From Chloracidobacterium sp. (GTDB lineage Bacteria; Acidobacteriota; Blastocatellia; Pyrinomonadales; Pyrinomonadaceae): a DNA stretch of 54,215 nt. Shown piece after piece: positions 3,867-23,140 of the stretch (positions within the stretch are counted from its first letter, which is position 1; every line of letters starts with the position of its first letter). The notes beneath the pieces are model-generated. The model was not told where the DNA came from. It was given only the letters and a program-made list of their open reading frames with translations, and did no database searches. The stretch covers positions 1 through 54,215 of the forward strand of contig JANMDA010000227.1 of NCBI GenBank assembly GCA_031376085.1, written 5' to 3'. The position numbers and the translations under genes were made by a program.

Positions 3867-6800
3867 TTATTTCGCCGGCGGATCGTCCGATACCTGAAAG
3901 AAATCGCCTTTACCGTCGCTGGTTTTCAGCAGACGCATTACATCCTCGTAGCCAAAGGGATGTGCTCCGCGGCGGCCAAACACGGCGATCTGGTTGCCGC
4001 TCTCGTCGGCGGCACGATCGCGGTCGAGGCCTTTTGAAATGCCGACAGCCTCGCCTTTTGTTCTGAATGTGGCTATCAGCTTAGGTTCGGGGCGAGGGCT
4101 GAAACCGGAGAAATTCGGCATAGTTTCAGGATCGGTAAGCTGTAGAATTTTAAGCCCGTTCTTTCCGTCGGCGACGTAGCCGTAAAGGCTGGCATTTGTC
4201 ATTGCGACCTTGATCGAGTGAGCATCGTTTATCGAGCCATCGGCGTTGAATGTCTGATCGAGTTTTGGCTGTTCGGGTTTTTCGACATCGATTATCGCGA
4301 TGCCGTCCTCGCCATTGGCCACATAAGCGTAAGTCCTGGCGACATAAATATCGTGGGAGTGGGCAAGCTTGACCTCAGCACCCGCGATCAAACTAACTTC
4401 GCCACTGGACTGTAAATTTTTAATATCGAGTACTTCCATTCCGTCAGCATCGACAACGAAGGCATACATGAATTGCACGGCGATGGCTTTTGGATGATTT
4501 AACGCGACCTGTGCAGCGATCTTTGGCTGAAGCGGCGTTGAAAGATCGACGATCACGAGCGCAGTATCAGTTGTTATGTAGGCGAAGTTTCCGGCAATCG
4601 TGATGTTGTTTGCACCTGAAAGAGCGCCGTTCGGATTAAATGTAACGGCTCGTTTCAGGAAATTGTTTTGCGGATCGCCGTCAAGCAGCGTTGCAGCGTT
4701 GACGAGGATCAATCCTTCGTATTTATCAGCAATATACAAATAGGCGTAAAGCGGATGGATCGGGCCTTCTTCATTGATCGCGGGCCTTGGTTTGCCGGCT
4801 TTGTCTGCTTCTTCGTTCAGACGCAAGGCTTCGTCCGGCGGCACTTGTTTCAAGCTGCCGTCCTCGTTCCTAACGGTTCGCCAGCGTGCCGGATCAACGG
4901 CTAAAGTCGAAGGCGCGGCAACTGCGGCTGCATACTTGGTCGGAACATAGAATTTTTGACCCATCGGCGAAACCGGCGCCGTAGTTATACGCTCGGAAAA
5001 TCCTTTATGATCTATCTGGGCGACATCATAGACGCGCAGGCCGCCTTTTCCTGCTGCCGCGTAAGCGTATTCGCCGCGAACCTGGACTTGCAGCACCTCG
5101 GGACGGCCTTTGTTCTCATAAACCTCTTCAAGCTCGCGGCCGTCTTTTACAAACTTGTCGTAATTGTCCTTGTAGGCCAATTTATGGAGTGTACTGCCGT
5201 AAACTGCTTGCGGCTCGGTGTACTCGGTGACAGGGACGGCTTCGAGTGCGTGGGTTGCTGCTACATAGACATAGCGGCCCATGAAATTGACGAAATTCGT
5301 CCCTTGGAGCATCACCTGTGCGAGCCACGCATTGTTGTCCTTGTCTTTGGAAACGTGACAGTTGGAGCAGGTCTGCGTTTCCTTACCGCGAACGGTATGC
5401 GGCACATGAGTATTGAACGCTTGTCCCGAGAAACCCTCTGCCGATAGAGTTTGCTGCTGGCTGTAGATCCATTCACGATTTTGATTTCGGGAACTCACGA
5501 GGACAGCAGAACGAGAGGCCACAGGAGCGATCCGGTGTCCGGTGACGGTTCCATCCTTGCCAAGCATAAAAATATCGTCGCGAATCACCTGAAAGTTATA
5601 CTGCGTAAAATTGCGCGAATCGCCGCCCTCATTGTGGCGGTTCGGCATTTTACGGTTAGACTCCATACTCAAATGGCAGCCGAAACAGCTCGTGACCCAT
5701 GACGTATGACACGCATAGCACGTCATACTGCTGTCGCGGTGGGCCAATTTATCATCGCCAGCAGTCGAATCACCCCAAGTCTCATTGTCTTTTTGGATGG
5801 TCTTGGCATAAGCCGATGCGGGATTGTAATCGCGGTTTCCCTCAGTGATCGTGTCGGTCGTTTGTTTTACCCGCCACCAGTGATTTGGTTCGACGATAGA
5901 AATCTTCACGATGTCGCCTTTTTTGAGCGCTATATCACGTCCGCTTGCATTTTTTTGCTTTCTATCCGCTTTGACCACCTCAAGCACGAATTTCTGCTTG
6001 CCGTCGGCAGATCGGAATTTCAGACGAGTCAGATCGCGGCCGATCAGCGGTTTGTTATCTTTTGTTCTCTGGTTGATCTCACCTTTGTTCGTCGCCGGCA
6101 TCGCCGCAAAACCGCTCGTGATGCCGTTGGCTTTTGCTTTTACGGTGCCGTGGCAATCAACGCAGCCGACCTCCACCGCCGCACGCGGTTCGTTATAGAG
6201 AATTCCGGTGCCGTGACTGTCCTGCTGAAAATGACAGTCGGCGCAGTGCATTCCTTTTTCGAGATGGATGTCCTGTAGATGAACTGCCTTTTTGAATTTG
6301 TCAGGATCATTAGAATCAACGACGCGACCGCCGACATCGAGCAAATTTCCTTTGCGATCCTTTTTATATACGTTTTTAAAGATCCAGCCGTGCCCGTGTG
6401 AATCGGCAAACTGCACATTCTTAAGCTTCGCGTTGAAATCCGCCGTACCCGTCTGCTGAAGAAATACCGAATCCGACCAAAGCCCGCGAAGCGACGCTCC
6501 TTCTGGGTTTTTGTCCAGTTTAGCTTTTTCCTCGGATTGACTTGGCTCGATCTGCTTGTCAGTCGGATACATCATTTTTCCGTCGGTTTCGTTGTCCCAC
6601 CACGTCTGGCCGAGATAGGTTGCGACCATGTTCGTTCCGGGATGCATGTGACAGGTCATGCACTGAGTCGTCGGAATGTTTGAAGTGAATTGATGCTTGA
6701 TCGGGTGGCCGGGCTCGTTTTTTGGAATTTTTGTGTCGGCTGACTGCGAAAATCCCTGATTTCCCGCAGCAGCGTATGGCCCTGCGGCCTTTTTGCTTGT

Positions 6801-7832
6801 GTCGTTTGCGTAGATTACATGGCAAGCCGTGCATCCCGCCGAGCGGTAGTCGCCGGCGTGGTCATTCGTCCCGAGAAAATTTAGCGTCGGGTCTAGCAGC
6901 CGCGTTTTTTGCAGGCCGAGATAGACGGGATCAGTGCGGTTGTTAGTGCCGAGGCCACGCTGGCTCAATCCCTTGTCGGGCCTACCGTTGTCTTCGTCCT
7001 TGTCGGGATTTCCAACCTCGAGACGTCGTTTTCCACCGCGTTCGAAAACGCGAAGGATGTTGCCTGGCTGCGATATTTCCCAGCGCGGCAGCGGATAGAG
7101 CGATTCGAGAAAGCCATCTTTTGCCTGCTGTTCGCGTGTCGGGGCAGGTGATTGAAACAACGCCTGCGGCTTGCCGTCTTCGTTATAGCTTTCGCCAAAA
7201 GCAGCGTCCTTGATCGGATAACCGCCGTTGTTATAAAGCGCCGCTCCCCACAGCATCGCTCCGTGTGCCATCATGCTGCGCGGGCTGCGTTTAGTTTCTT
7301 CCGCATGGCAAGTGCCGCACGTTTGAGTGATCACGCGAAAATCACCGGGATTGATAAAACGAACAAAATCACGGCTTTCTTTGGCAAGCAGCGTATTAGT
7401 TCGCTCCGGATTTCTGCTCGAACAGTCGCCATTCTTGCAGCCCCACTCTTTTGGAAACTTCGGCTGGACGTGAGCCTCTGCCTGTGTCGTTGCCGCCGGA
7501 TTACCTCCGTGACACGAAGTGCAGCTTAGATCTTGAGCGTCTTTGCCGTCTTTTAATGTTTCGTAAACATCGCCGCTGCTGTTGTATTTGTGCATCGGCT
7601 CGATATTGTTATGACACTTCAGGCAGCCTTCCATTGGCGGGTCGTCCGTTTTTGTCAGAGGCGCCGGGGCAGCGGGCAGGACTTGACGGTCAGTTTGTGC
7701 GGCGGGCGCGGGTGATGCGTCGTTTAATTTGGCAAGAGCCACGCTCTTCCACAACGCTGCGGCTAAAAAGCAGGCAAAAATGAGCAGGACGATCAGCTTG
7801 ATCCGTTTATGCATGTTCGTAACTGCGGCCAT
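3867..7832 (-). CDS. decahaem c-type cytochrome fused to a C-terminal LVIVD-repeat beta-propeller
   Basis: 10 CXXCH motifs (CLKCH, CTSCH, CGTCH, CTACH, CMTCH, CADCH, CVDCH, CYACH, CFGCH, CSNCH). The C-terminal ~450 aa has at least 6 LVIVD-type repeats ([59 protein letters not shown]). N-terminal signal/anchor [16 protein letters not shown]. The ORF track starts at GTG 7841. I prefer ATG 7832, which sits 8 nt after AAGGAG. Confidence 0.85.
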
Positions 7833-7844
7833 TTTCCTCACTCC

Positions 7845-9956
7845 TTAGAATATTAGTTTCATTTGGCTGAACAGCGAATACTGCGGCTTGGACGGATTGA
7901 CAACGTCGCCCGTGCAGAAATTTGGTATCGGACAATTTCGTGATCTGTCAGTATAAATGTCTTTAAATCCTTTGCCGGCAAAAAAGACGCTTCCGCCAAA
8001 TGTAAATGTCACGTTATTTATCAGCCACGGACGATAAACGACGCCAAGACTGAGATCGCCGCCGATCTCGTGCCTGATGCCGGGCTGGAAAAGTACATAT
8101 TCGAGCGATTCGGTTCGGTGAAAGCGGAGATAATTTGCGTTGAATACCGCTTTCACGGTCTGAGTCAATTCGGCGTCGGCGCCGAGATTGAATATCTCAA
8201 TGCCCGGATTGACGAAATTCGCCTGTCCCTCACTTTTGCTCGAACGAAGTGTCGGTAAAAGGCTGTTGCCCTGAACCAAACCGACTTCGGTCGAAACCAG
8301 GCGAATTCCTTGTCGGTTCCAATATGAAAATTGTCCGCCGACAAAATTCGGATCGTCTAATATTGCGTCGAAACCTTTTGCTTTATCGTCAGTCGGATCG
8401 CTGTCACCTGAGGCGAAGAAAACCGATGCTCGAAAACGCAGCCAATCGCGGTCTATCGAGGCTTCGGCAGCCGCCATGTGCGCCCTGATGTCGGTCCTGC
8501 GGCCAGCTATTGGATTAAATTCGTCGTGGCCAAATGCAAAGTAATACGAATTAGATAAATTCAGCAATCCGATATGGCCATCGCCGTTAAAGCCGACATA
8601 ACCGGCTCGAACATTGTGCTCACGCGCACTGCCGATCAATGCCGGACGAACGAGAAAACCATTTTCGTCATAATGAATGCGGCCGCGATCGTCGTTAAAA
8701 GCTGCTATTGCCTGGATCGTATAGCCCTTGGTCAAAAAATCCTGATGATAGAAATTGGCGATGTAAACATTTTGATGACGCGTGTGAAATGTATTCAGGC
8801 CGCTGTTGGTGTCTTTTTCAAGCTGGTTGAAATAGGCGACGTTGAACTGATTTTTATTATTCGAAAACGCTCCGAAGAAACGTGCGCCTAAGTTATTGTC
8901 CGAATACAAAAATCCGCGAAAATCCGCATTGAACGGCTGAATACCTGCGCGAATAAATGCCGCATCGTAATTGTCATTTGTGTCAAAAAGCTTGACCTCG
9001 GCAAAAGCGTCTTCGAGCGAGGCATGATAATCGGTGCGGTTGGTGCCGCGTCGGACATCGATGTTTACGATGCCGTTCTCACGGGCATTGAGATAATTTG
9101 GAACGCTGAAAGTCGGCGATATTTTTATCGCCCATGCGCGCGGCCTGAAAACAGTGTCGCCCTTAAAGAACTCGAATGAAACCTGAACCGTTTCGTTAAG
9201 CGAAAAACTCTCGGGACGTCCAAAAAAATTATTGCTGTTCGGATCGGCTGTACTGACATTATTACCGGAAGGTGTCCTGCGGATCTCGGCACCTGTCGTA
9301 CTGACACCCGACAAGATCATAAAATACTTGTCGCCGATTGTCGGAAAATCGCCTTTTAAGACATTTCGGTCATAAGGGTTGTACCAGGCGTTTCGTTTAA
9401 ATGGAATGTCGCGTCCACGAGCACCTTTGTCGCCGTAACGATCGTATTCGGGAAATTCATAACGCCAGCGGTCACGAACCTCGCGGCGATCATAGCTGCT
9501 TTTTGCTGTCGTATCGGTCTTTTCGGTTTCATCTGGCTTTGATGAGCTTGTGTTAACGACCTTGAATTCTATTTTTCTCTCGCCGCCGTCGATGATGACA
9601 TTTTCGAGTATCGGACATTTTTCTTTTTTCCTGTCACAAAACACGTTTGAAAAAACGCCGTATTCGTCTGCCTTTCCCGGGCTGAAACGAGCTTCGAAAG
9701 GCAGCCCGACGGATATGCGATAAGCGCCAGCTCCGAGCCGAAAAGAAAATTCGCCGCCCGATCTTGTTACTTTGGTTTCTTCTTCGCCGGATGTTTGATT
9801 GGTGACTATCACAGTCACACCCGCGACCGGTTTGCCGTCGTCGTCAACGACTTTTCCTGAGAGGCGACCGCTGGACGACTGAGCAAGCGTGATTGAGGCT
9901 ATTGATAAAGCGAATAGGGCGAGAAAAAGAACACGTTTTGGAAAACTCAACGGCAT
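7845..9956 (-). CDS. outer-membrane beta-barrel protein with N-terminal carboxypeptidase-regulatory-like domain
   Basis: Signal peptide (LFLALFALSIASITLAQS). Ig-like domain GRLSGKVVDDDGKPVAGVTVIVTNQTSGEE...FSFRLGAGAYRISV. About 550 aa rich in Gly/Asn/Tyr/Phe with alternating hydrophobicity. The C-terminus ...YSLFSQMKLIF ends in Phe, typical of an OMP beta-signal. Its TAA overlaps the Shine-Dalgarno (SD) sequence of the downstream cytochrome gene. Confidence 0.7.
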   Translation of the reverse strand: MPLSFPKRVLFLALFALSIASITLAQSSSGRLSGKVVDDDGKPVAGVTVIVTNQTSGEEETKVTRSGGEFSFRLGAGAYRISVGLPFEARFSPGKADEYGVFSNVFCDRKKEKCPILENVIIDGGERKIEFKVVNTSSSKPDETEKTDTTAKSSYDRREVRDRWRYEFPEYDRYGDKGARGRDIPFKRNAWYNPYDRNVLKGDFPTIGDKYFMILSGVSTTGAEIRRTPSGNNVSTADPNSNNFFGRPESFSLNETVQVSFEFFKGDTVFRPRAWAIKISPTFSVPNYLNARENGIVNIDVRRGTNRTDYHASLEDAFAEVKLFDTNDNYDAAFIRAGIQPFNADFRGFLYSDNNLGARFFGAFSNNKNQFNVAYFNQLEKDTNSGLNTFHTRHQNVYIANFYHQDFLTKGYTIQAIAAFNDDRGRIHYDENGFLVRPALIGSAREHNVRAGYVGFNGDGHIGLLNLSNSYYFAFGHDEFNPIAGRRTDIRAHMAAAEASIDRDWLRFRASVFFASGDSDPTDDKAKGFDAILDDPNFVGGQFSYWNRQGIRLVSTEVGLVQGNSLLPTLRSSKSEGQANFVNPGIEIFNLGADAELTQTVKAVFNANYLRFHRTESLEYVLFQPGIRHEIGGDLSLGVVYRPWLINNVTFTFGGSVFFAGKGFKDIYTDRSRNCPIPNFCTGDVVNPSKPQYSLFSQMKLIF

Positions 9957-10087
9957 AGCGCAAATTCTTCCAACAAAACTTCGGGCAAGATAAAATCAGA
10001 CTTCTTCTTCGGAGTTACTGACAGTCGTTGTAACATAAATTGCGCCTAAATGCCAAGTACTGAAATGACTTGACTATCGGGCGGGTT

Positions 10088-10095
10088 TGTATAAT
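10088..10095 (+). promoter_or_regulatory. extended -10 element (TGTATAAT) upstream of the plus-strand cytochrome operon
   Basis: Perfect TGnTATAAT at 10088-10095, with TTGACT at 10070-10075 but only a 14-nt spacer. It lies just 13 nt before ATG 10109, so it would give a very short leader. Sequence match only. Confidence 0.25.
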
Positions 10096-10108
10096 ATTCA
10101 GAAACATC

Positions 10109-11779
10109 ATGAAAAGTAAACAACTGGTAAGGAAGTTTAAGTTTTTTGCCGGATTTGTGATCTTGCTGATTTTGGGCCTCGATGCATATGCGCAAAATAG
10201 CCTGACGGCTGCTGACGTGCAGCGTATCATTGCCCAGGCGGTTTCCGAAGCCGTCGCGTCTAATCAGAAGGTGACCGTTTCGGTACTTGATAAGGAAGGA
10301 CACGTCTTAGGAACTTTCGTGATGACCGGCGCCGCGCCGACGACCACGATACGCGGCACGGGCAGATCGGGACAAGGTTTTGAGAATGTTACAGTGCCAT
10401 CGCGCTTTGCGTCGCTTTCAAAAGCCGGCACAGGTGCGTTGCTTTCATCGGGCGGCAACGCTTTCTCGACTCGAACCGCGTCGTTTATCATTCAGGAACA
10501 TTTTCCAGCGGGTATCGATAATACACCCGGCGGGCCGCTGTTTGGCGTGCAGTTTTCGTCGTTGAAATGTTCGGATGTTGTTATAGCCGGACTTCCACTT
10601 GGTTTGTCAGGCGATGCGGGTGGAATACCGCTTTACAAAAATGGTGTTGAGGTTGGCGGTGTCGGGGTTGAGGGCGACGGCTTGTATACGGCTGACACCA
10701 ATCCGAGAGACAACGATCAATCTTACGAAGAGAGAATAGCCGTCGCGGCTTCGCGTGGGTTTGAGGCTCCGGCGTTGATTCGCGCCGATAATATTCTTGT
10801 CGCTGGGCTTCGCTTTCCGTTTGCGAATATTAATGTTTCCGATTTTCCGGTTGCGACCGCGATTCCATTCGGCATTTTGCCCGGAGCGGTAGATCCGTCG
10901 GACCCGATCATCGCTGCTCCGGCGAGTGATTTTATTGCAAGAACATTGAACGGCGTCAGCGGACAGGCCAGTTCGCGGTTTCCGACCATAGCAGGCTCGG
11001 CTCTTACCGTCGCCGAGGTCGATTCCGTACTGGGAGCCGCAGCAGGTATTGCCAATATTACGCGGGCAGGCATTCGCCAGCCACTCGGCAGCAATGCACG
11101 CGTCAATATTTCCGTTGTCGATACCGATGGCAAAGTCCTTGGGTTTTTCCGGCAGCTTGATGCTCCGGTATTCGGCTTTGACGTGTCTGTGCAGAAGGCT
11201 CGCTCGGTGAATTTTATATCACGCACCGATGCTGGTGCGAAACTGAGCGCGAACGGGTTTGGTTCTTATGTAGCGCGGGCAAATGCCGATGGTATTGCTC
11301 TCAACGGAACTATCGCATTTAGCGACAGAGGTTTTGGCTTTTTGCATCGTCCGCTGTTTCCCGACGGCATAAACGGAACAGATGCCGGGCCGTTCAGCAA
11401 AATATTGGCCGATTTCAGTCCTTTTAATAACGGGCTGCAAGTCGATCTGATCTTTACCAGGGTTACGACGCCGATGCCGATGTGCCGCGGCGCGGTTATG
11501 GAAAAGCGGATGGTATTACCGCCGCAATGTCAGTGCACAACAATTTCGGAATTGAAAAACGGCTTACAAATATTTGCGGGCGGCATTCCGCTTTATCGCG
11601 GCAGCACGCTTATCGGCGCAATCGGTATCAGCGGTGACGGTATTGAGCAGGACGATCTGATCGCAGCCGGCGGAGCAAACTTGTTTCCCGTACCAGTGGC
11701 TATGCGGTCCGACAATTTCTTTGTTCGCAACGTGCGTCTTCCATTTGTAAAGTTTCCACCCAGGCCATTTTTACCTTAA
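10109..11779 (+). CDS. secreted protein with two GlcG/HbpS-like (DUF336, haem-binding fold) domains
   Basis: Signal peptide MKSKQLVRKFKFFAGFVILLILGLDAYA|Q. Two copies of the DUF336 signature: AADVQRIIAQAV...VTVSVLDKEGHVLG...GGIPLYKNGVEVGGVGVEGDG and VAEVDSVLGAA...VNISVVDTDGKVLG...GGIPLYRGSTLIGAIGISGDGIEQDD. Start moved from the track's 10070 to the ATG that precedes the signal peptide. Confidence 0.7.
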   Translation: MKSKQLVRKFKFFAGFVILLILGLDAYAQNSLTAADVQRIIAQAVSEAVASNQKVTVSVLDKEGHVLGTFVMTGAAPTTTIRGTGRSGQGFENVTVPSRFASLSKAGTGALLSSGGNAFSTRTASFIIQEHFPAGIDNTPGGPLFGVQFSSLKCSDVVIAGLPLGLSGDAGGIPLYKNGVEVGGVGVEGDGLYTADTNPRDNDQSYEERIAVAASRGFEAPALIRADNILVAGLRFPFANINVSDFPVATAIPFGILPGAVDPSDPIIAAPASDFIARTLNGVSGQASSRFPTIAGSALTVAEVDSVLGAAAGIANITRAGIRQPLGSNARVNISVVDTDGKVLGFFRQLDAPVFGFDVSVQKARSVNFISRTDAGAKLSANGFGSYVARANADGIALNGTIAFSDRGFGFLHRPLFPDGINGTDAGPFSKILADFSPFNNGLQVDLIFTRVTTPMPMCRGAVMEKRMVLPPQCQCTTISELKNGLQIFAGGIPLYRGSTLIGAIGISGDGIEQDDLIAAGGANLFPVPVAMRSDNFFVRNVRLPFVKFPPRPFLP

Positions 11780-15351: not shown

Positions 15352-16113
15352 ATGAAAAACACGGCTAAATTGATAGTAATTTCTGTTTTTGCACTGGGTG
15401 CTTTGTTTGTTTTTTTGAGTGGCAATAATTACTACAAAATCGATGCGGCTGGTTTTTTTGTAGCGATGGCGCAGCCGACTCCGCCAAAAAATAAAAACAC
15501 AAATTCTTCAGGCGCAAACAGCAACACAAAACCGATAGCTGGAAATACAGCTGCAAATGCGAATGTTGTAAAAACAATGCCTGCAATGACGGCCACTCCT
15601 GCAACGGTTCCGGCAAATACCGCCTCAAATACAAGTACAGTTCCACCATCAACAGGAGGCAAATCGATCCCAAAATCGTTTACCTTGGGACTGGACAGTC
15701 AGTCGGAATATGGCGAGGCCGCTTTTGATCATGATACTCACGCTTTTAAGAATTACAGCCCGGATGGAAAATCGGTAATGGGCTGCGTCGAATGTCACCA
15801 TACAGATCAACCCAAATCGGCATTAAAACTGCCCTATGTTACGTCAGAACGGAATGAGACATTGACGTTTGATGTGTGGCAGAAGTCCTCACAAAAAGTC
15901 AGCAGCTGTCGGGATTGTCATTTTCAGGACGGAAATGTTCCGGATGGAAAAACAATGCCGACATCCGGCAGCAAAGACCTAAATAATCAGCTCGCATACC
16001 ATATCAACTGTAATTCATGTCATGACGCCGCGTTTAAGGCGCGTCCGGAATTAAAAACTCACAAAGGGTTTGCAACCTCAAAAGACTGCGCCGTTTGCCA
16101 CAAAACGAGTTAA
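15352..16113 (+). CDS. membrane-tethered tetrahaem cytochrome c3-like protein (tandem paralogue of 14593-15282)
   Basis: MKNTAKLIVISVFALGALFVFLS anchor, about 100 aa of N/T/A/P-rich low-complexity sequence, then AFDHDTHAF and 4 CXXCH motifs (CVECH, CRDCH, CNSCH, CAVCH). Start moved from GTG 15298 to ATG 15352. Confidence 0.85.
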   Translation: MKNTAKLIVISVFALGALFVFLSGNNYYKIDAAGFFVAMAQPTPPKNKNTNSSGANSNTKPIAGNTAANANVVKTMPAMTATPATVPANTASNTSTVPPSTGGKSIPKSFTLGLDSQSEYGEAAFDHDTHAFKNYSPDGKSVMGCVECHHTDQPKSALKLPYVTSERNETLTFDVWQKSSQKVSSCRDCHFQDGNVPDGKTMPTSGSKDLNNQLAYHINCNSCHDAAFKARPELKTHKGFATSKDCAVCHKTS

Positions 16114-16117
16114 CCGA

Positions 16118-16561
16118 ATGGCCTTGCGGCAATGCGACAAATGTAGTGAAATGGTTGACGAGGCCAAGGCATTTTGCCCTGGTTGCGGCAACGCTTTTGT
16201 AGAGGAAGAGAAAAGGCAGGAAGCATCGAAGTTCGAGAAATTGGAACACACTGTCCAATTCGGCCAGACGATGTATAACCAGATGCTCGAGGATATGGGG
16301 CTGAATATCTCCAACGCACCAAATCCTGTAGAAAGACGCGTCGAGGTGATCGCTCCGGTAAATACGGAAATTACTGCTCCTGCAAAAGCTGCGGTGACCG
16401 TCGCAGTGCCGCCTGCCGTAAAGACGCCGGAAGTAAGCGTAACATCGTCGAGCAATATAAAGTGGTATATTCTTATCGGCGCCGCTGTTATTTTGCTTTT
16501 ACCGATCGCTCTAGCATCTGCGATCTTGCTTGTTTTAGATATCTTGTCGCGCTTAAAGTAA
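16118..16561 (+). CDS. zinc-ribbon protein with C-terminal transmembrane anchor
   Basis: N-terminal CDKC-x12-CPGC zinc-ribbon, an Ala/Pro/Val-rich linker, and a C-terminal helix WYILIGAAVILLLPIALASAILLVLDIL. Start placed at ATG 16118. Confidence 0.55.
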   Translation: MALRQCDKCSEMVDEAKAFCPGCGNAFVEEEKRQEASKFEKLEHTVQFGQTMYNQMLEDMGLNISNAPNPVERRVEVIAPVNTEITAPAKAAVTVAVPPAVKTPEVSVTSSSNIKWYILIGAAVILLLPIALASAILLVLDILSRLK

Positions 16562-16593: not shown

Positions 16594-17193
16594 ATGCCAC
16601 GTGTAATAGAAAACCACGAGCAGATAGTAGAGGCATTTCAAAATGTTGACATCGTATCCGAACTAGTTGAAAAACTGCCAAACGGCGAGTTTCGGAACGA
16701 GCTTGACATGGATATTATCTTGTTCGGCCGCAGCTATCGCGGTAAACAGGTCGGTCCCTACACGCGTCTCCTCGAATTTCTGCCCGGCGAAATAATAGTC
16801 GAAGAAAACTCCTGGGAAAGCAGCATCTTTTACATCCTCGTAAAAGGCGATCTCGAAGCCTCGATCACTGACGAAAACGGAAAACAAAAAAAGGTTGGAG
16901 CGATCCCGGCCGGCAACTCATTTGGTGAAATGGCCTTGCTTTCCGGAACGCCGAGAACCGCGACTGTCTCAGTTGCTTCGAAAGGTGAACCTGCGCTTGT
17001 TCTGGAATTTACCCGTCCGGCAATACGGCTACTGCGAAAACTGCCGAAATTCGGCAAAGCTCTCGACCGCAATTATCGGGCATACGGGCTGACGCTCACT
17101 TTGAATGACCTTAAAGATTTCAGGCATCTCGATCTTGACCCCGCATTGCTGCAGCGTTTGAATGACGCCGCGCGTTTCGCGGTCTATGAATAG
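16594..17193 (+). CDS. cyclic-nucleotide-binding domain protein; N-terminal fragment of a longer gene interrupted by in-frame TAG 17191-17193
   Basis: cNMP-binding signature FGEMALLSGTPRTATVSVAS. The C-terminus ...AARFAVYE* stops inside the start of a second cNMP-binding domain, which continues in the same frame at 17194. Confidence 0.7.
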   Translation: MPRVIENHEQIVEAFQNVDIVSELVEKLPNGEFRNELDMDIILFGRSYRGKQVGPYTRLLEFLPGEIIVEENSWESSIFYILVKGDLEASITDENGKQKKVGAIPAGNSFGEMALLSGTPRTATVSVASKGEPALVLEFTRPAIRLLRKLPKFGKALDRNYRAYGLTLTLNDLKDFRHLDLDPALLQRLNDAARFAVYE

Positions 17194-17199
17194 GATCAT

Positions 17200-19077
17200 G
17201 TGCTGTTTCGCGAAGGCGACCCTGTAAATCGAGTCGTTTTTGTTCGAAATGGTTGGATACAGCGTGTAAGCGGCGTCGAATTTAACCCAAAGGCAGCTGA
17301 TATTTTGCTCGAATCAGACGAGTCGGTCGGACTCGATTTTCTCGGGGCCGGCAGCTGCCTCGGCCTCGAATCAATAGAGAAATCAGGCAACTGGAGCTAT
17401 ACGGCCACCGTTCGCTCTCGAAGTGAGGTGCTTGAGATCGCTATTTCAAGGCTTCGTGAAGATACCGGTATGAGCTCTGCGGTCATGCCTTTCTTACGGT
17501 CTTCGTCCGGGGCAGACGATTCAAATACGCCATCGCACCCTTCCGATACACGCGTAATAACCGCTGCCAGCCGTGAGATCGAAACCGGTGTTGTCGACGG
17601 CGTAAATCTGCTGGTAATGGACATGGCCAAGTGCATCCGCTGCGGCAACTGTTCGCTTGCGTGCCACAAGGTTCATGGTAATTCGCGCCTGACCAGACGC
17701 GGTATTCATATCGAACGGCCATTCAAAGCAAACAAACCGGCGATCCAAAGCGTCTTGGTGCCGACGGTTTGCATGCATTGCCAGGATCCGGAATGCCTGA
17801 CCGGCTGTCCGACCGGTGCGATCGCCCGCTTTCCGAACGGCGAGATCGACATCAATCCCACAACCTGCATAGGTTGCGGCGACTGCGCTACGCAATGTCC
17901 GTACAATGCCATTTCTATGATTCCCCGGCCTGATCCCAAAAATGCGAATGGCAAAGGAGTGGTTTCGAATCTCTTTTCGGCGTTCTCGCTCAGCGAAGCA
18001 AAAATGCCCGAGCCTGTCGAGCAAACAGAAAACTTGCTTGCCGTAAAGTGCAATCTTTGTCACGACACGGGAATGAATCCGAAGGGTGCAAAGACCGAAG
18101 CCTACTCGTGCGAAGAAAATTGTCCGACCGGCGCACTTGTTCGTGTAAACCCGCGCGAGTATTTTGACGAGGTAAACCAGGCGATTGGATTCATACAGCG
18201 GACCGAAACTCACGCGATCGGTGTCAATATACATAAATTCGATCTAAAGGCGACTATCTGGCATGTGATCGGTGTTTTTTTTGTTTTGGTACTCGGCGGC
18301 TTAGCTGTGTGGGCTACACGCTTTTTTGCACAAGATATTCCGTTGAGTACCGGCGGTTGGATGACGATGCGGTGGTTAACGGGACTTACTGGTTTGGTGA
18401 GCATCGTTTGGGTGATGGCCTATCCGCTTAGAAAACAGGTCTATCGCCGCCGAGCAGGAGCGTTGAGATATTGGATGCTTTCGCATATCTATCTGGGCGT
18501 TTTGGCTGGCGTTGTATTGTTGGTTCACGGCGGTACAAGCTCAGGCGGTTTATTGACCACGGCTTTGATGATCTCGTTCGATATGGTGATAGCCAGCGGG
18601 CTTTTCGGTGCCGCGTGCTACATCATTGTGCCGCGTTTTATGACTAAGATCGAACGCGAGCCTCTGCTTTTAGAAGACCTCGAAGCCCGCCGCGAAGAGC
18701 TCCGAGCCGAACTTGTTCGTGCAACCGAGCAAACTGCTAATGAAGAGCTTCATGTGTTGATCCAAAGAAAAGTACGTCGCCGTTTCCTCGGGCTGGGTTA
18801 CCTAATCCGGCAGTATTTTAAGAAAGAAGATTTGCCGACAATGCTGGCCGATGCCCGTGAAGAATTTCGCTCGGCGGCAGAAAAGATGAGCCGTTCCGAT
18901 GACGCGCGATTGATGGAAGCGGTCGAAAATGCTGCGACGCTGCGCCGTGTCGATGCACTTTGTTATCTTCACCAGTCACTTAAGTTGTGGGTCGCACCGC
19001 ATGTGCTGTTTACGGCTTTGATGTTAGTGCTTATGTTGATCCATATAGTTCAGGTTGTTTATTTTAATGTTCGATGA
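17200..19077 (+). CDS. cNMP-binding / 4x[4Fe-4S] ferredoxin / putative di-haem-b membrane protein (continuation of 16594-17193)
   Basis: (D)HVLFREGDPVNRVVFVRNG... is a cNMP-binding barrel. Four Cys clusters: CIRCGNCSLAC, CMHCQDPECLTGCP, CIGCGDCATQCP, CNLC...CEENCP. Five predicted TM helices, two of them with His-x13-His (His codons at 18484/18526 and 19000/19042). The only in-frame start after the TAG is GTG 17200. Confidence 0.75.
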   Translation: MLFREGDPVNRVVFVRNGWIQRVSGVEFNPKAADILLESDESVGLDFLGAGSCLGLESIEKSGNWSYTATVRSRSEVLEIAISRLREDTGMSSAVMPFLRSSSGADDSNTPSHPSDTRVITAASREIETGVVDGVNLLVMDMAKCIRCGNCSLACHKVHGNSRLTRRGIHIERPFKANKPAIQSVLVPTVCMHCQDPECLTGCPTGAIARFPNGEIDINPTTCIGCGDCATQCPYNAISMIPRPDPKNANGKGVVSNLFSAFSLSEAKMPEPVEQTENLLAVKCNLCHDTGMNPKGAKTEAYSCEENCPTGALVRVNPREYFDEVNQAIGFIQRTETHAIGVNIHKFDLKATIWHVIGVFFVLVLGGLAVWATRFFAQDIPLSTGGWMTMRWLTGLTGLVSIVWVMAYPLRKQVYRRRAGALRYWMLSHIYLGVLAGVVLLVHGGTSSGGLLTTALMISFDMVIASGLFGAACYIIVPRFMTKIEREPLLLEDLEARREELRAELVRATEQTANEELHVLIQRKVRRRFLGLGYLIRQYFKKEDLPTMLADAREEFRSAAEKMSRSDDARLMEAVENAATLRRVDALCYLHQSLKLWVAPHVLFTALMLVLMLIHIVQVVYFNVR

Positions 19078-20498
19078 GCAAGAAAACAGGAAAATTTACA
19101 GTCTCATATGCCGATCTGCTTCTCCAGACAAGATCGGTCGAGAAAGATGGCATCTATATTGGACGGCTGGAAACCTGTGAGGTCTTTTTAGATCATAAGA
19201 CCGTTTCGCGAATTCATGCGGGCATCAATTTTCAGGACGAAAATTACAATTTAGTAAATCTCTCGACATCAAATGTCCTAACGCTTAACGGCCGCCGTCT
19301 AGCATCGAAACAATCCGATGTCCTGGCCGACGGCGATACTATTCAGATCGGCCCGTTTACTATACTTGTCGCCCGTCTCGGCGATGAATTATTGTTGGTC
19401 GTCGATCAGCAATTTGCAGAGCGGACACCTCAGGGAGTGTTACATTCCCCTCAGGCCGCAAAGCCTTCTGCGGCTGAAGAAGCCGGAGGTGTCTTAGACG
19501 TATTTTGGGAAAAGCGTTCGCGAGACAAGGACGACTGGGGAACACGCCTTCGCCCGACGGAGAAACCAAAACCGGGCAAGGCAATGTTCAATTGGAAGCC
19601 AACGCGCGATCTACGGCCCACATGGCGAGCTGGATTATTTATTTGGGCATTTCTCATAATCGGTGCACTAGGCGTGTATGCGTTTTTTCGCCACCCGGAA
19701 ACCTATGCACCAAAACCTCTTTCAAATCCTCATGCCTCGAAGATCGAGAACAGCGTGATCGCCGCAGCAGCCAACGGAAACTCTTGCACGACATGTCACA
19801 CACTCAATGAAGGGGTCGAAAATTCCTGTATCAAATGTCATTCGGCGTCAGAATTTCACTCGACCAATACAAAGGCACACGAGCAAGCGGGCATAACCTG
19901 CACGATGTGTCACCGCGAACATCAGGGAGCCGATTTTGATATAATAGCGACTGCTATTCAAACATGTTCCGAATGTCATAACGACAAAAACTCAAATACT
20001 TACAAAGGGAAAACTGTTCACACCGCACACGAGGGCTCTTACGGTTACCCGGCGATTGGCGGCATCTGGAAATGGAAAGGTGTTTACCGCGAAGTTGCCG
20101 AAGCGATACCGGAGATCAATCGCAGCGCGACCGGCGACAAAGATGAACAGGCAAAATTGAGCCGTCAGTTTCATACTGTTCACTTATATCGCCTACAGGT
20201 GCCCGAACCATTAAAAGGTGACAAACGCGGTCTTGTAACGTGTTCCACATGTCATGATAGTTTCGGTACGGCTATCGACAGAGTGAAGCCGCGTCAAACC
20301 TGCGCAGCTTGCCATACGACACAGGCAGATGCGGCGAACCGTGACAAGCGTTTTAACGCAGGCGGTGCAAATTGTATTTCCTGCCACGTTCAGCATCCAT
20401 ACAGCACAGGAAGATGGAGCGAATTTCTAACCACGGACGCTTTAGACAGGCGAAAAGAAGCGATCACGAGTAAGATCAACCAACTTAGCGGACAATGA
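19074..20498 (+). CDS. FHA domain - single TM - heptahaem c-type cytochrome fusion
   Basis: N-terminal FHA signature (IGR...VSRIHAGI...LVNLSTSNVLTLNGRRL...GDTIQIG). TM helix AGLFIWAFLIIGALGVYAFF. Seven CXXCH motifs (CTTCH, CIKCH, CTMCH, CSECH, CSTCH, CAACH, CISCH). ATGA overlaps with both neighbouring genes. Confidence 0.85.
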   Translation: MSKKTGKFTVSYADLLLQTRSVEKDGIYIGRLETCEVFLDHKTVSRIHAGINFQDENYNLVNLSTSNVLTLNGRRLASKQSDVLADGDTIQIGPFTILVARLGDELLLVVDQQFAERTPQGVLHSPQAAKPSAAEEAGGVLDVFWEKRSRDKDDWGTRLRPTEKPKPGKAMFNWKPTRDLRPTWRAGLFIWAFLIIGALGVYAFFRHPETYAPKPLSNPHASKIENSVIAAAANGNSCTTCHTLNEGVENSCIKCHSASEFHSTNTKAHEQAGITCTMCHREHQGADFDIIATAIQTCSECHNDKNSNTYKGKTVHTAHEGSYGYPAIGGIWKWKGVYREVAEAIPEINRSATGDKDEQAKLSRQFHTVHLYRLQVPEPLKGDKRGLVTCSTCHDSFGTAIDRVKPRQTCAACHTTQADAANRDKRFNAGGANCISCHVQHPYSTGRWSEFLTTDALDRRKEAITSKINQLSGQ

Positions 20499-22390
20499 AA
20501 TTTTTTCATCTCTTCATTTGCGTTGTGCTCATCGGCTTTTTGATCTGGCTGAACCAGACGTTTGTCCCGGCGGACGTTACTCATTACGGCGGGCTGTCGT
20601 GGATCGGTTGGGCAAGCATTTTGTTTGTCGGTTTCGGCATCGGACTTCTCTTTGTATTTAATGATTCGTCACGCGCCTTTGGTTTCTTTAAAGCTCGCGA
20701 TGAGAAGGCCGCTCCGCCGACAAATATTCGAACGCTCTCGAAAGTGGAGCTTACCGAACTAGGCCTCGACAAATACCGCGGGCCGAGTTATCCGCACCCT
20801 GTGATTTTCCCGGAAAGATGCATCGGCTGTCAGGCTTGTGTCGATGCTTGTCCTCATGACGTGCTTGCGATCGTCGATGGAACTGCTTCGGCGGTTGCTC
20901 CCGACCTTTGCATGGAGGACACTGCCTGTCAGGCGGAATGTCCCGTTAATCCAAAAGCGTGCATTATCATCAACACGGCTAAGGATGTGCGCTCGCTTCC
21001 GACGCCGACGCGCGATGGGTCAACTTTTCAAACCAATGTGCCCGGATGTTTTATCATCGGCGATGTTTCCGGCGTTCCGCTGATCAAGAATGCGGTGAAG
21101 GAGGGTGCAGATGTAATTACCCATATTGTTGATGAACTAAAGCGCGCGCCACAGGAACCTAAGGCGGATTACGATGTAGCGATCATCGGCATCGGCCCGG
21201 GCGGAGCATCCGCAGCGGCCTCGGCTCAAGAGGCCAATCTTCGATATGTCGGTATCGAACAGGATAAGATATTGTCCACCATCGACCTGTATCCGAAAGG
21301 CAAATATATTTTCTTCAAACCAGATACAAAGGACTGGTCGGGAGGCATTCCGGTCACGGGCCTTGGCCTTTCAAAGGCTAAATACGGCGGCGGAGAAAGT
21401 GATGACGATCAGCCGATCTTTGACGCATTGGGACAAGACCTAAACACGATCGTGCATGAACAGGCCTCTGTGCTTCACAGCGAAATGATCACAAAGATCT
21501 CAACGTCACTCCATAAAAAACTTTCGCCAAAGCTGTCTGAAAAGCTTGAGAAGGAGTTGAAGAAACGTATTGCCGGTTATCTGCGTTCAAAAGGCTCGGC
21601 TGACTGGGCGAAGATTTTTCAAACGCAGTTCCTTAACGAACAAAATAATCTGTTACCGGTTTTCCGCTCCGATATAGCCGATCAGCTTCAAACCAAAATT
21701 CCGGGCGATCAGCGCGAGAACATTCTCGACATATGGCTCGGCAGCCTGAATGAGAAAGGAGTAAAGATCAACGAAAATGAAAGCTGCAAAACGGTAAATC
21801 GAGCCGAGGACGGCGATTATTTTGTGATCAATACCGAACGCAGCACTGAAAAATCTCCACAGACATACAAGGCACGACGAGTGATCATTGCCATCGGACT
21901 TCGCGGTGCGCCGAACAAACTTCGGCTGCCAAATGAAGATCTGAAATTTAAGATCGAAGGCCGCGAAGAACAAAAGGTCATCTATGGACTGTCAAATCCT
22001 GATGATTTTTGGGGAAACCGCATAATTGTCGTTGGCGGCGGTAATGTCGCCGTCGAAGCCGCCGTAGATCTGGTCGCCACACGCGACGGAGCTGCGATCA
22101 CTCCGCGAACGCCTGAGACAATGAATAAAGTGACATTGCTGGTTCGCGACTATCTTGCTCCAACGGTTAAGTTTGGAAATAAATTTCAACTTTACCAATG
22201 CGCTGATAACGGCATCATCGACCTGCAGTTCGGTGCAGGCATCAAGGAAATGCGCGAAAATGAAGTCGTGTTGGAAGATGTAAAAACTAAGAAGGAACTG
22301 GAAACGATCCCGAACGATTACATTTTTGCGCTAATCGGCGGCGAGAGGCCGAACAGGTTTTTAGAATCGATAGGTATTACGATCAAGTAG
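20495..22390 (+). CDS. membrane-anchored 4Fe-4S ferredoxin / FAD-NAD(P)-binding oxidoreductase
   Basis: Two N-terminal TM helices. CIGCQACVDACP and CQAECP ferredoxin motifs. GCFIIGDVSGVPLIKNAVKEG (FAD 'GD' motif). YDVAIIGIGPGGASAA (GxGxxG). IIVVGGGNVAVEAAVDL (second dinucleotide fold). Confidence 0.8.
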   Translation: MKFFHLFICVVLIGFLIWLNQTFVPADVTHYGGLSWIGWASILFVGFGIGLLFVFNDSSRAFGFFKARDEKAAPPTNIRTLSKVELTELGLDKYRGPSYPHPVIFPERCIGCQACVDACPHDVLAIVDGTASAVAPDLCMEDTACQAECPVNPKACIIINTAKDVRSLPTPTRDGSTFQTNVPGCFIIGDVSGVPLIKNAVKEGADVITHIVDELKRAPQEPKADYDVAIIGIGPGGASAAASAQEANLRYVGIEQDKILSTIDLYPKGKYIFFKPDTKDWSGGIPVTGLGLSKAKYGGGESDDDQPIFDALGQDLNTIVHEQASVLHSEMITKISTSLHKKLSPKLSEKLEKELKKRIAGYLRSKGSADWAKIFQTQFLNEQNNLLPVFRSDIADQLQTKIPGDQRENILDIWLGSLNEKGVKINENESCKTVNRAEDGDYFVINTERSTEKSPQTYKARRVIIAIGLRGAPNKLRLPNEDLKFKIEGREEQKVIYGLSNPDDFWGNRIIVVGGGNVAVEAAVDLVATRDGAAITPRTPETMNKVTLLVRDYLAPTVKFGNKFQLYQCADNGIIDLQFGAGIKEMRENEVVLEDVKTKKELETIPNDYIFALIGGERPNRFLESIGITIK

Positions 22391-22393
22391 CAG

Positions 22394-23140
22394 ATGAGAA
22401 AAGATAATATTATGTTTGCCATGCTTGGCCTGGTCGCAGGCCTCGCTATCGGATTTATCGGTGCCAACAGCATCAATAGATCAACCTTTGAAAAACAGCC
22501 TGCTTCTATGGCCTCTAGCGGCGAGTCAAACAGCAATCCGGCACTTCCGCCAAATCATCCGCCGCTCAACAATTCGGCCAGTAATTCATCTCAGAGCGAT
22601 CCGCGTCCGGAAGTGATGGTTGCGATCGAAAAGGCAAAAGCACAGCCGCAGAATTACGAAGCTCAAATGACGGCTGCCGATCTCTATTATCAGATACAGC
22701 GTTTTGACGAAGCGGCAAAATTTTATGAGGCGGCGGCAAAATTAAAACCTGCCGACATCGAACCGATGATAAAAGCAGGGAACGCCTTTTTTGATGCTGC
22801 ACAATTGGCCGCTGAGAATGATGACGATAAAGTCGCGACGCCAACGTTTGTGCTTGCGGAAAAATGGTATCAACAAGCTCTTCAAAAAGAGCCAAGGAAT
22901 TTAAGTGTAAGGACAGATCTCGGTTTGACATTTTTCCTTCGGATTCCGCGCGATGTTGATCGGGCGATCAAAGAGTTCAAGACATCGTTAAGCATTGACC
23001 CCAACCATGAGAAAAGCCTACAGAATCTTGCAACTGCTTATAAAGAAAACGGCGATAAAGAAAACTATCAATCAACGATAGAAAAGCTAAAAAAGATAAA
23101 TCCGAACAATCCCCTCTTTACAAAAACCGAGACAAAATAA
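22394..23140 (+). CDS. membrane-anchored TPR-repeat protein
   Basis: N-terminal helix MFAMLGLVAGLAIGFIGA, a low-complexity linker, then TPR-like repeats (AADLYYQIQRFDEAAKFYEAAAKLKPADIE, AEKWYQQALQKEPRN, AIKEFKTSLSIDPNHEKSLQNLATAY). Confidence 0.7.
   Translation: MRKDNIMFAMLGLVAGLAIGFIGANSINRSTFEKQPASMASSGESNSNPALPPNHPPLNNSASNSSQSDPRPEVMVAIEKAKAQPQNYEAQMTAADLYYQIQRFDEAAKFYEAAAKLKPADIEPMIKAGNAFFDAAQLAAENDDDKVATPTFVLAEKWYQQALQKEPRNLSVRTDLGLTFFLRIPRDVDRAIKEFKTSLSIDPNHEKSLQNLATAYKENGDKENYQSTIEKLKKINPNNPLFTKTETK

Follow-up and report, generated by a model that had tools for sequence, protein, structure and literature searches.

A gene cluster of about 19 kb in Chloracidobacterium sp. (Acidobacteriota, Blastocatellia, Pyrinomonadaceae), located at positions 3867–23140 of a 54,215-nt contig (JANMDA010000227.1, assembly GCA_031376085.1; the whole stretch is referred to as the window), consists of two divergent operons rich in multihaem cytochromes c and iron-sulfur (Fe-S) proteins. 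It is probable, if by no means secure, that the two operons encode a single co-inherited electron chain that spans the cell envelope from NAD(P)H in the cytoplasm to a beta-barrel and a decahaem cytochrome at the outer membrane, and that is gated by cyclic nucleotides and by phosphorylation.

In the proposed chain, whose open reading frames (ORFs) are labelled B to O, the membrane-anchored flavoprotein N would oxidize cytoplasmic NAD(P)H and pass the electrons through its two [4Fe-4S] clusters to the four clusters of L, and from there to two b-type haems predicted to be stacked across the inner membrane and held by four invariant His residues on two helices of L. On the periplasmic side, the heptahaem domain of M would take the electrons, which the soluble nonahaem cytochromes F and G, together with the long-tethered tetrahaem cytochromes H and I, would then carry over the periplasm to an outer-membrane module in which the decahaem/LVIVD-propeller protein B joins the barrel C, probably with help from the HbpS-like D. 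The acceptor reduced there would be extracellular or located at the cell surface. The flux may be gated from the cytoplasm, by a cyclic nucleotide acting via two cyclic-nucleotide-binding (cNMP) domains on L, and by Ser/Thr phosphorylation acting via an FHA domain on M.

Organization of the cluster

The features of the cluster are as follows (TM, transmembrane helix).
3809–3836, minus strand: terminator-like hairpin after B (12-bp stem, then T-run)
3867–7832, minus strand: B, secreted decahaem cytochrome c (residues about 1–900; 10 CXXCH) with a C-terminal LVIVD beta-propeller (about 915–1324; Pfam LVIVD)
7845–9956, minus strand: C, predicted outer-membrane beta-barrel with an N-terminal CarboxypepD_reg beta-sandwich, translationally coupled to B (signal peptide; ends ...KLIF)
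9957–10108, no strand: divergent intergenic region C/D (TTGACT-16-TAATAT promoter-like site at 10070–10097)
10109–11779, plus strand: D, secreted tandem HbpS/GlcG (DUF336)-like protein (Pfam HbpS-like, 67 bits, three stretches)
11784–12587, plus strand: E, Cys-rich lipoprotein of unknown family (lipobox LSGC, 10 Cys)
12584–13666, plus strand: F, periplasmic nonahaem cytochrome c (9 CXXCH)
13677–14585, plus strand: G, periplasmic nonahaem cytochrome c with c7/c3-type modules (9 CXXCH; Cytochrome_C7, 53 bits)
14593–15282, plus strand: H, membrane-anchored tetrahaem cytochrome with a Pro/Thr/Ser-rich tether, paralogue of I (4 CXXCH, N-terminal TM)
15352–16113, plus strand: I, membrane-anchored, tethered tetrahaem cytochrome (4 CXXCH, TM anchor, linker of about 90 aa)
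16118–16561, plus strand: J, cytoplasmic zinc ribbon (CxxC...CxxC) with a C-terminal TM (weak DZR/Zn-ribbon matches, TM 138–156)
16594–17196, plus strand: K, first cNMP-binding domain, ended by an in-frame TAG (cNMP_binding match)
17197–19077, plus strand: L, degenerate second cNMP domain, four-cluster [4Fe-4S] domain and 5-TM domain with two H-x13-H pairs (cNMP and Fer4 matches)
19074–20498, plus strand: M, cytoplasmic FHA domain, one TM and periplasmic heptahaem cytochrome c (FHA match, 7 CXXCH)
20495–22390, plus strand: N, two TM, 2x[4Fe-4S] ferredoxin and cytoplasmic YpdA/TrxR-type FAD/NAD(P)H flavoprotein (Pfam, GxGxxG motifs)
22394–23140, plus strand: O, membrane-anchored TPR protein (Pfam TPR families)
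23173–23191, plus strand: terminator-like hairpin after O (6-bp GC-rich stem, then T-run)

A first-pass annotation, made from the letters alone, had proposed a trans-envelope electron conduit at this site, and its ORFs, coordinates and domain calls are present as described when the ORFs are read and searched against Pfam, with C-B on the minus strand and D...O on the plus strand. Its total of 43 CXXCH motifs (10+9+9+4+4+7 in B, F, G, H, I and M) was reproduced on recounting, and since none occurs across the 8,475 aa of the remaining plus-strand ORFs in the window, the number lies beyond chance; L has one extra CNLCH, located within an Fe-S motif. The translational coupling that it had reported can likewise be read in the sequence, as ATGA overlaps at E/F, L/M and M/N, and as a C stop codon (TAA) that overlaps a TAAGGAG Shine-Dalgarno element 8 nt upstream of the B start codon (ATG at 7832). 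The remaining plus-strand gaps measure 3–10 nt, besides one of 32 nt and one of 69 nt. Signal peptides are found on B, C, D, F and G. Between C and D, a promoter scan detected a single -35/-10-like site, and promoter-like sites are no commoner in this region than in shuffled sequence. An NCBIfam scan of all 17 ORFs yielded no equivalog that reaches its own cut-off, and assignments to Ext, Nrf, Hmc, Tmc, Qrc, Arr, Dsr or YpdA were rejected, as all of them fall below the NCBIfam cut-offs.

Conservation of the cluster and co-inheritance of its operons

The inner- and outer-membrane parts are considered one system because they are co-inherited across deep divergence and rearrangement, which is the main evidence for the proposed chain. 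When species-representative genomes were scanned with the M alignment by means of two M-specific peptide patterns, 103 species-level genomes matched, all belonging to Pyrinomonadaceae or related Blastocatellia, and 80 loci were fetched from them (loci bear the prefix L and a number). The closest relatives of M, L and C come from Pyrinomonadaceae metagenome-assembled genomes and metagenomes, where they are annotated by domain names only. K-L-M-N forms the constant core of the 80 loci, with D-E-F-G-(one tetrahaem gene)-J upstream and O downstream in nearly all of them, and C is divergent from D wherever the flank extends that far. Complete C-B / D...N clusters are present in two further contigs. 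Haem counts are kept among the loci (B 10, F 8–9, G 9, H/I 4, M 7); sequence identity is about 70–89% for B, C, L and N, and about 30–50% for F, E and J.

The outer-membrane pair was traced further by a metagenome scan with the B alignment, which gave 324 relatives, and 80 loci were fetched. In every informative locus among these, even where B identity falls to 47%, C directly precedes B on the same strand, and D is usually adjacent to the pair. In distant, high-GC relatives (L156 and L172), a single operon comprises a cNMP-Fer4 protein, a stand-alone TM protein, a decahaem cytochrome c, an FHA protein, C, B and a Pyr_redox+FHA+Fer2 protein, while in L140, L129 and L159 the D-C-B genes face an operon of a decahaem cytochrome, a TM protein and a cNMP-FeS protein. 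The gene order underlying the first-pass proposal is thus conserved, in loci from 103 species-level genomes and in many metagenome contigs, and of the outcomes named beforehand as refuting that proposal, none that sequence data can reach was observed.

That C-B and the D...O operon are chance neighbours with separate functions is hardly tenable. A 4.5-Mb genome (L003/L010) without C in the 10 kb upstream of D...O would fit such an explanation, which is nevertheless largely refuted by the linkage of C-B to L-M-N after rearrangement and deep divergence, including the single-operon versions; even in the rearranged clusters L049, L058, L071 and L081, in which C-B is downstream of N or O, the two parts remain linked.

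The cNMP and Fe-S domains of K and L

K and L represent one gene that is split by an in-frame TAG at 17194–17196 ('RFAVYE*DHVLFREGDP'). At this position the homologues have Lys (AAG), and in 67 of 67 other loci K+L is a single ORF of about 826 aa, with K as the N-terminus of L. A nonsense mutation, a variant within the population and an error of assembly would each account for the TAG. A look-up of the 199-aa K product, made to see if the TAG recurs in independent assemblies, returned no matching record, and in two contigs (L001 and L002) whose M protein is identical to that of the window, the TAG site lies beyond their sequence. The protein with cNMP, 4x[4Fe-4S] and His-x13-His elements that the first-pass annotation described therefore stands in its domains; it is interrupted by the TAG, and it carries two cNMP domains, not one.

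Both cNMP domains pass the PF00027 cut-off of 27.5 bits, K with 51.8 bits and the L N-terminus with 31.1 bits. The phosphate-binding cassette of K is canonical (FGEMALLSGTPRTATV, GE...PR[ST]A type), and the second domain is degenerate, having no cassette Arg. As these cytoplasmic domains precede it, the Fe-S domain of L lacks an export signal. It contains four CxxCxxCxxxC-type clusters with 16 Cys, all invariant in homologues, and its matches in the PDB are ArrB-, PsrB- and NrfC-type subunits (6cz7_B, E 5e-17; 2vpw_B, 1.5e-11). By its sequence the domain is a four-cluster ferredoxin of the NrfC/PsrB/ArrB type, and the equivalogs assign it to no named enzyme subunit (ArrB 65.8 bits vs 450; DsrO 65.3 vs 200).

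A putative dihaem cytochrome b in the inner membrane

The membrane domain of L has two H-x13-H pairs, formed by H429, H443, H601 and H615 and carried by two helices that run in parallel. These four are the only His residues invariant among 48 diverse relatives of 21–81% identity (48 of 48), and all 30 stand-alone homologues and the five aligned proteins from distant operons retain them as well. A two-helix His-pair pattern is that of a haem pair stacked across the membrane, as in cytochrome b of the bc1 complex and in NOX, and the same H-x13-H spacing occurs in TM3 of NOX. Among the 30 stand-alone homologues, sub-threshold Pfam matches recur to DUF4405 (17/30), Ni_hydr_CYTB (12/30) and Ferric_reduct (5/30), with a best E of about 2e-4. 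DUF4405 itself is an experimentally demonstrated haem-b protein with four central His residues, as shown by a pyridine haemochrome assay (PMC11334425). Because of the invariant His pairs, the recurrent weak cytochrome b matches and the DUF4405 precedent, L very probably carries two haems b.

The domain belongs to a family without a Pfam entry. Among 1.8 billion cluster representatives searched, 1,481 are relatives at E<=1e-3; they include proteins that share the cNMP-Fer4-TM architecture, others of about 280 aa that stand alone, and one fusion to a cytochrome c (P0375). The L membrane domain of the window reaches no Pfam threshold (DUF4405, E=0.22, 12.5 bits vs 26.7), and PDB searches find no homologue of it. 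An AlphaFold2 (AF2) model built on 26 homologues of at least 75% identity reached a predicted local distance difference test score (pLDDT) of 45, and Foldseek against the PDB gave nothing credible for it (best E 0.07); any structural conclusion from this model was dropped.

Four-cluster ferredoxins of the NrfC/PsrB/DmsB/FdnH type normally partner quinone-reactive membrane anchors, and some relatives of the membrane domain show the weak Ni_hydr_CYTB matches noted above. One may therefore suppose that the dihaem b of L reduces or oxidizes menaquinone, in which case N-L would be an alternative NAD(P)H:quinone oxidoreductase and L-M a quinol:cytochrome c oxidoreductase. We regard this as distinctly unlikely. 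No quinone-anchor family rises above threshold in L (NrfD, NarI and FdnI fail, as does DUF4405); M is always adjacent, or a cytochrome is fused to the membrane domain as in P0375, which fits direct transfer from haem b to haem c; and the L-M pair occurs without an adjoining N in L089 and L092, never beside a recognizable quinol oxidase. The proposed chain, which is preferred here, may bypass quinones.

Several other contexts of L-type genes were seen. In L088 (9852–13685), a multihaem cytochrome c region and a membrane domain of this dihaem-b type are joined in one protein of 1,277 aa, whose gene directly follows TIR/iSTAND and AAA ATPase genes, a defence-like context. A multicopper oxidase gene (L089, 15135–17405) is separated from a distant L-M pair upstream of it by about 1.2 kb and two small ORFs, VWA/VIT proteins adjoin distant L-type genes at L091 (9347–10840) and L092 (1009–3042), and an exosortase gene is found near the L-M pair in L092.

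The flavoprotein N, its substrate and the direction of electron flow

N combines Fer4 and Pyr_redox_2 matches with a Pyr_redox_3 match of 92 bits, and its PDB matches are 7a76 (E 2.5e-16) and 7a7b (Bdr/YpdA) along with TrxR-type FNRs. It shares the fold class of YpdA and not the named equivalog (TIGR04018, 114 bits against a cut-off of 340), and it has no CxxC motif. For the TM-ferredoxin-flavoprotein N and the FHA-TM-heptahaem protein M, as the first-pass annotation had called them, the Pfam matches, CXXCH counts and TM checks agree.

The cytoplasmic partner of the chain is probably NAD(P)H, as judged from the gene neighbourhoods. The core of cNMP-FeS protein, TM-b domain and cytochrome is joined to an N-type flavoprotein in the window and in L091, to an FHA-Fer4-Pyr_redox fusion in L090, and to a Pyr_redox+FHA+Fer2 protein in L156. 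In L140 (10695–16830, minus strand), the N-type protein is replaced by a NuoE/NuoF-like fusion (2Fe-2S_thioredx + Complex1_51K + NADH_4Fe-4S), and the cNMP-FeS protein gains a NuoG-like N-terminus (Fer2_4 + NADH-G_4Fe-4S_3). Three non-orthologous flavoprotein modules, all of the NAD(P)H type and one of them NuoEF-like, attach to the same core, and swaps of this kind therefore point to NAD(P)H as the substrate.

Established bioenergetics favours outward flow: from the N-side to the P-side of the membrane, electrons would follow both the membrane potential and the redox drop from NAD(P)H, at about -320 mV, to the higher potentials typical of c-type haems, while the opposite course runs against both. 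Electron uptake, in which extracellular Fe(II), Mn(II), reduced humics or a cathode would donate electrons that pass B-C, the periplasmic cytochromes and M-L and finally reduce NAD(P)+ at N, is accordingly very unlikely: such movement goes against the membrane potential, the donor would have to lie well below -320 mV for NAD(P)+ to be reduced, and Pfam and NCBIfam scans show no recognizable proton-coupling or bifurcating element. What speaks for uptake is that NuoEF-like and TrxR/FNR-like modules are reversible and that direction is similarly uncertain for the Mto/Pio homologues of Mtr; the first-pass annotation had also left it open.

Signalling domains on the redox subunits

The FHA domain of M scores 51.5 bits against a PF00498 cut-off of 20.7, and its phosphothreonine-binding residues (G30, R31, S45, R46, H48, N72 and G73) are invariant in 11 diverse homologues. 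Its topology places the FHA domain inside and, after one TM, the haems outside; seven haems are retained in 77 of 78 homologues with adequate coverage. FHA is kept in distant systems on differing subunits, so that the first-pass finding of cNMP and FHA domains fused to redox subunits proves to be real and to persist in distant relatives, with FHA shifting between subunits. A Ser/Thr kinase gene adjoins the cluster in L091. Electron export of this kind dissipates the membrane potential, which would account for the placement of receiver domains on the redox subunits of the proposed chain.

Two LuxR/GerE-type regulators are encoded beyond the cluster (25032–25736, minus strand; 26608–27330, plus strand), the former without a detectable receiver-domain match.

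The conserved fusion of two kinds of signalling domain to redox subunits, the two LuxR-type regulators nearby, and the fact that HbpS-type proteins act as extracellular redox sensors in Streptomyces might suggest a sensing device, in which the haem chain informs cNMP, FHA and kinase signalling in the cytoplasm about the redox state outside the cell or in the periplasm and carries no metabolic flux. Such a role is extremely improbable, considering that cNMP-binding and FHA domains receive signals and emit none, that there is no fused cyclase, kinase or DNA-binding output, and that 43 haems, 24 Fe-S irons and a dedicated NAD(P)H flavoprotein far exceed the needs of sensing. Iron acquisition was rejected as the main role on the reasoning that an apparatus of 43 haems, rich in Fe-S, would be a poor investment under iron limitation.

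Periplasmic carriers and accessory proteins

F and G are soluble and made of c7/c3-type modules. F is a 360-aa nonahaem protein without the flanking beta-barrel domains of the MtrC/OmcA type; through a single pentahaem domain, it passes PF22113 (MtrC/MtrF domain II/IV) with 42.4 bits against a cut-off of 30, and its homologues have 8–9 haems. G has nine haems in 58 of 58 homologues with adequate coverage. H, whose low-complexity linker comprises about 75 aa, and I are anchored in the inner membrane and are each about 35–40% identical to the other's relatives, and plausibly both act as tethered shuttles. The pair of tethered tetrahaem genes in the first-pass annotation is present in the window, and most genomes carry one only: there is exactly one tetrahaem gene in 64 loci, I being the copy retained in other genomes, and besides the window just one other locus has two. 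None of the six cytochromes reaches the threshold of a curated respiratory-enzyme family in NCBIfam; membership in a characterized respiratory enzyme had been named as an outcome that would tell against the first-pass reading.

Among the accessory proteins, E matches no Pfam or NCBIfam family, and its position, like that of J, is conserved among loci. O follows N in most loci and gives a weak TPR_CcmH_CycH match (21 bits, cut-off 42); it is possibly an apocytochrome or assembly chaperone. The lipobox of E, the ribbon of J and the TM anchors, which had supported their description as a Cys-rich lipoprotein, a Zn-ribbon membrane protein and an anchored TPR protein, were verified.

The outer-membrane module

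In B, the propeller is recognized by Pfam LVIVD in five repeats (65–78 bits), together with a weak NCBIfam match to 'choice-of-anchor B'. Relatives align over the full length (1,324 aa) at 71–78% identity and keep all ten haem motifs; sequence and profile searches find no PDB homologue. For its ten haems, B has 17 invariant non-motif His residues, and it contains neither CXXCK nor another known catalytic haem motif. In five homologue loci (L071, L105, L106, L111 and L123, of which L071 and L106 have identical B sequences) the C-terminus bears an extra hydrophobic helix and a basic cluster (for instance ...GFVLVGLHLKRKTM), a tail that resembles a sorting or anchoring signal. The propeller class, with LVIVD and 'choice-of-anchor B' being cell-surface-associated, and the sorting-like tail in five loci suggest that B is exposed on the surface, and neither proves it.

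For C, Pfam recognizes the CarboxypepD_reg domain (45 bits); the barrel part matches no Pfam family even at E<=10, and a PDB profile search finds nothing for it. In the AF2 model (pLDDT 50), the N-terminal beta-sandwich is modelled well and about 19 long strands span residues 211–702, for which Foldseek returns generic outer-membrane barrels only (AlgE, chitoporin, porins and OccK; TM-scores 0.25–0.4). The model supports C being a beta-barrel, with neither strand count nor family fixed by it. An ordinary nutrient porin or exporter had been named as the outcome that would tell against the first-pass reading; by sequence, C matches no such family and is always paired with the decahaem gene. D, annotated earlier as a secreted double GlcG-like protein, indeed has its HbpS/GlcG-like match, which extends over three stretches, and weak PDB matches to EfgA/GlcG proteins, and it remains beside C-B even in distant relatives.

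These data also bear on the possibility that B is a periplasmic enzyme, namely a multihaem oxidoreductase whose propeller binds a soluble substrate entering via the porin C, with L-M-N, F, G, H and I only supplying or removing electrons. The haems of B are widely spaced and its long non-haem segments strongly conserved, more enzyme- than wire-like; the best structural matches of the barrel are the substrate channels AlgE, chitoporin and OccK; and the surface-anchor signal is absent from most B homologues. On the other hand, the lack of a catalytic haem motif and the 17 invariant His for ten haems do not favour catalysis, no curated family of nitrite, sulfite, tetrathionate or hydroxylamine enzymes recognizes B, proteins with LVIVD and choice-of-anchor B domains are typically found at the cell surface, and the strict translational coupling of C to B is the pattern of porin-cytochrome pairs. 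An enzymatic role for B is hence considered unlikely, and electron delivery to an acceptor at B-C is preferred.

Comparison with known electron-transfer systems

In concept the cluster is a porin-cytochrome-type conduit; beyond generic domain classes, its sequences lack the profile-testable defining features of MtrCAB, the Geobacter porin-cytochrome and Ext complexes, CymA/NapC, Tmc/Hmc/Qrc and NOX. As in MtrCAB, MtoAB and PioAB, the gene for an outer-membrane barrel is tightly coupled to a decahaem gene, and periplasmic multihaem carriers are present; the single pentahaem domain of F passes the MtrC/MtrF threshold, in a protein that has none of the flanking beta-barrel domains. Unlike those systems, C gives no MtrB/PioB match (MtrB is outside the top 50 Foldseek matches of the low-confidence C model) and is modelled with about 19 strands versus 26 in MtrB, while a single decahaem-LVIVD fusion, B, replaces the MtrA and MtrC pair; no MtrA/DmsE-family threshold is reached, the only score being that of M (TIGR03508, 40.5 bits vs 192), with none for B. 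The inner-membrane entry also differs from a CymA-type quinol dehydrogenase: NapC/NirT-type families are absent from the Pfam and NCBIfam matches of B, F, G, H, I and M at E<=0.01, in agreement with the earlier remark that no enzyme of the NapC/NirT/CymA type is seen.

The Geobacter systems (OmaB-OmbB-OmcB, and ExtABCD/ExtHIJKL with ImcH, CbcL or CbcBA) resemble the proposed chain in their modular trans-envelope arrangement, their several periplasmic c7/c3-type carriers and the pairing of b- and c-type cytochromes at the inner membrane. The outer-membrane module nonetheless departs from the Geobacter layout, as had been noted at first pass, in lacking the gene trio of periplasmic octahaem, porin and lipoprotein dodecahaem, and B falls short of the Ext cut-offs (ExtM 61 bits vs 800, ExtN 19.7 vs 200, ExtO 19.3 vs 200). 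Moreover, the b-type domain of L is not HydC/FdnI-like; a four-cluster ferredoxin and cNMP domains are fused to it on the cytoplasmic side, and its partner subunit is an NAD(P)H flavoprotein.

In architecture, L-M comes closest to the Tmc, Hmc and DsrMKJOP complexes of sulfate reducers, which combine periplasmic multihaem c, membrane b and cytoplasmic Fe-S subunits with no obligatory quinone step. In contrast to L-M, they employ a NarI-like cytochrome b, HdrD/CCG-type Fe-S proteins and inward flow to DsrC, and they have no flavoprotein, signalling domains or outer-membrane module; the corresponding equivalogs are not reached (QrcA 37.9 bits vs 180, a weak match of G; HmcA <=25 vs 400; TmcA 24 vs 114; QrcC 31.7 vs 400). 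The closest mechanistic analogue of N-L is found in NOX/FRE and the MsrQ/PepSY-like/DUF4405 proteins, in which NAD(P)H reduces a flavin and then two stacked haems b on two His-pair helices. Here, by contrast, Ferric_reduct, FAD_binding_8 and NAD_binding_6 match neither L nor N, the flavoprotein is a separate subunit of the TrxR/YpdA type, six [4Fe-4S] clusters would lie between flavin and haem b, and the acceptor would be a multihaem cytochrome c instead of O2, an Fe(III) chelate or MsrP. The flavin-based extracellular electron transfer of Listeria (Ndh2-DMK-EetAB-PplA) likewise supplies an extracellular sink, apart from aerobic respiration, through a dedicated NAD(P)H dehydrogenase, but it is a Gram-positive system with flavinylated proteins and no haem, depends on the quinone demethylmenaquinone (DMK), and shows no sequence relationship.

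Weighing and significance of the proposed chain

The sequences establish the domains, the topology signals, the invariant cofactor ligands and the joint inheritance of the genes; haem b binding, the NAD(P)H donor, outward flow, independence from quinone, passage over the outer membrane and gating are inferred from them. Several points weigh against the proposed chain, which is so far entirely computational. With respect to its course, the L membrane domain could hold a quinone site and thus make the path quinone-dependent, and modules of the NuoEF and TrxR types are reversible in principle. With respect to the outer membrane, the best structural matches of C, with its roughly 19 modelled strands, are 16–18-strand porins and AlgE, not the 26-strand MtrB; B could be wholly periplasmic, in which case no haem domain would thread through C; and the AF2 models of L and C are both of low confidence (pLDDT 45 and 50). 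The in-frame TAG in K/L means that the system may be impaired in this genome, or that the base call is wrong. Finally, there is no cultured strain among the 80 genome matches listed, and cultured Pyrinomonadaceae are described as aerobic heterotrophs.

To our knowledge, the known pathways of extracellular electron transfer (Mtr, Geobacter porin-cytochrome complexes, Cyc2 and the flavin-based route) all start from the quinone pool, and their regulation is mostly transcriptional. The present system, which occurs in at least 103 species-level genomes and is built almost wholly from unclassified protein families, appears to tap NAD(P)H directly via an Fe-S/dihaem-b wire, with second-messenger and phosphothreonine receivers on the redox subunits. 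No description of the cluster was found in the literature on multihaem and porin-cytochrome systems of Pyrinomonadaceae and Blastocatellia, on signalling-domain fusions, on LVIVD cytochromes and on quinone-independent extracellular electron transfer. We tentatively raise the possibility, with more doubt than for the chain itself, that L-M-N and its variants bearing NuoEF-like and Fer2 modules represent an unrecognized class of quinone-independent, electrogenic NAD(P)H:periplasmic-cytochrome-c oxidoreductases, analogous in function to the NADPH oxidases (NOX) of eukaryotes and switched directly by cNMP and Ser/Thr phosphorylation, which is coupled to a new outer-membrane module of barrel and decahaem-propeller and offers soil Acidobacteria, an abundant group mostly considered aerobic, a regulated extracellular electron route. 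The Pyrinomonadaceae/Blastocatellia lineage is common in soils, streams and wastewater. If this proposal is true, reduction of minerals, humics or electrodes would be expected of more organisms than at present, NOX-type electrogenic electron export would gain a defined counterpart in bacteria, and a tractable model for the post-translational gating of respiratory electron flow would be at hand.

Neighbouring genes in the window

An Rfam scan of the window found nothing in the cluster and, outside it, only a tRNA gene (637–709, plus strand; RF00005, 63.5 bits). The gene at 784–3714 (minus strand) encodes a secreted 976-aa protein with a right-handed beta-helix, a long Pro/Thr repeat linker, and dockerin-like and cohesin domains; cohesin and dockerin in one acidobacterial protein are unusual, and the gene is not kept beside the cluster in other genomes. 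Downstream of the cluster, P (23164–24930, Asn-synthase-like) and Q are kept beside it only in the two closest relatives, L076 and L077. From 27874 to about 53000 (plus strand) extends a polysaccharide export and biosynthesis cluster, which includes Wza-like Poly_export/SLBB and Wzc-like GNVR+AAA proteins, NeuB, a UDP-GlcNAc 2-epimerase, a CMP-sugar cytidylyltransferase, an asparagine synthase and an ABC-2 exporter, and whose content suggests a capsule or exopolysaccharide with nonulosonic acid.

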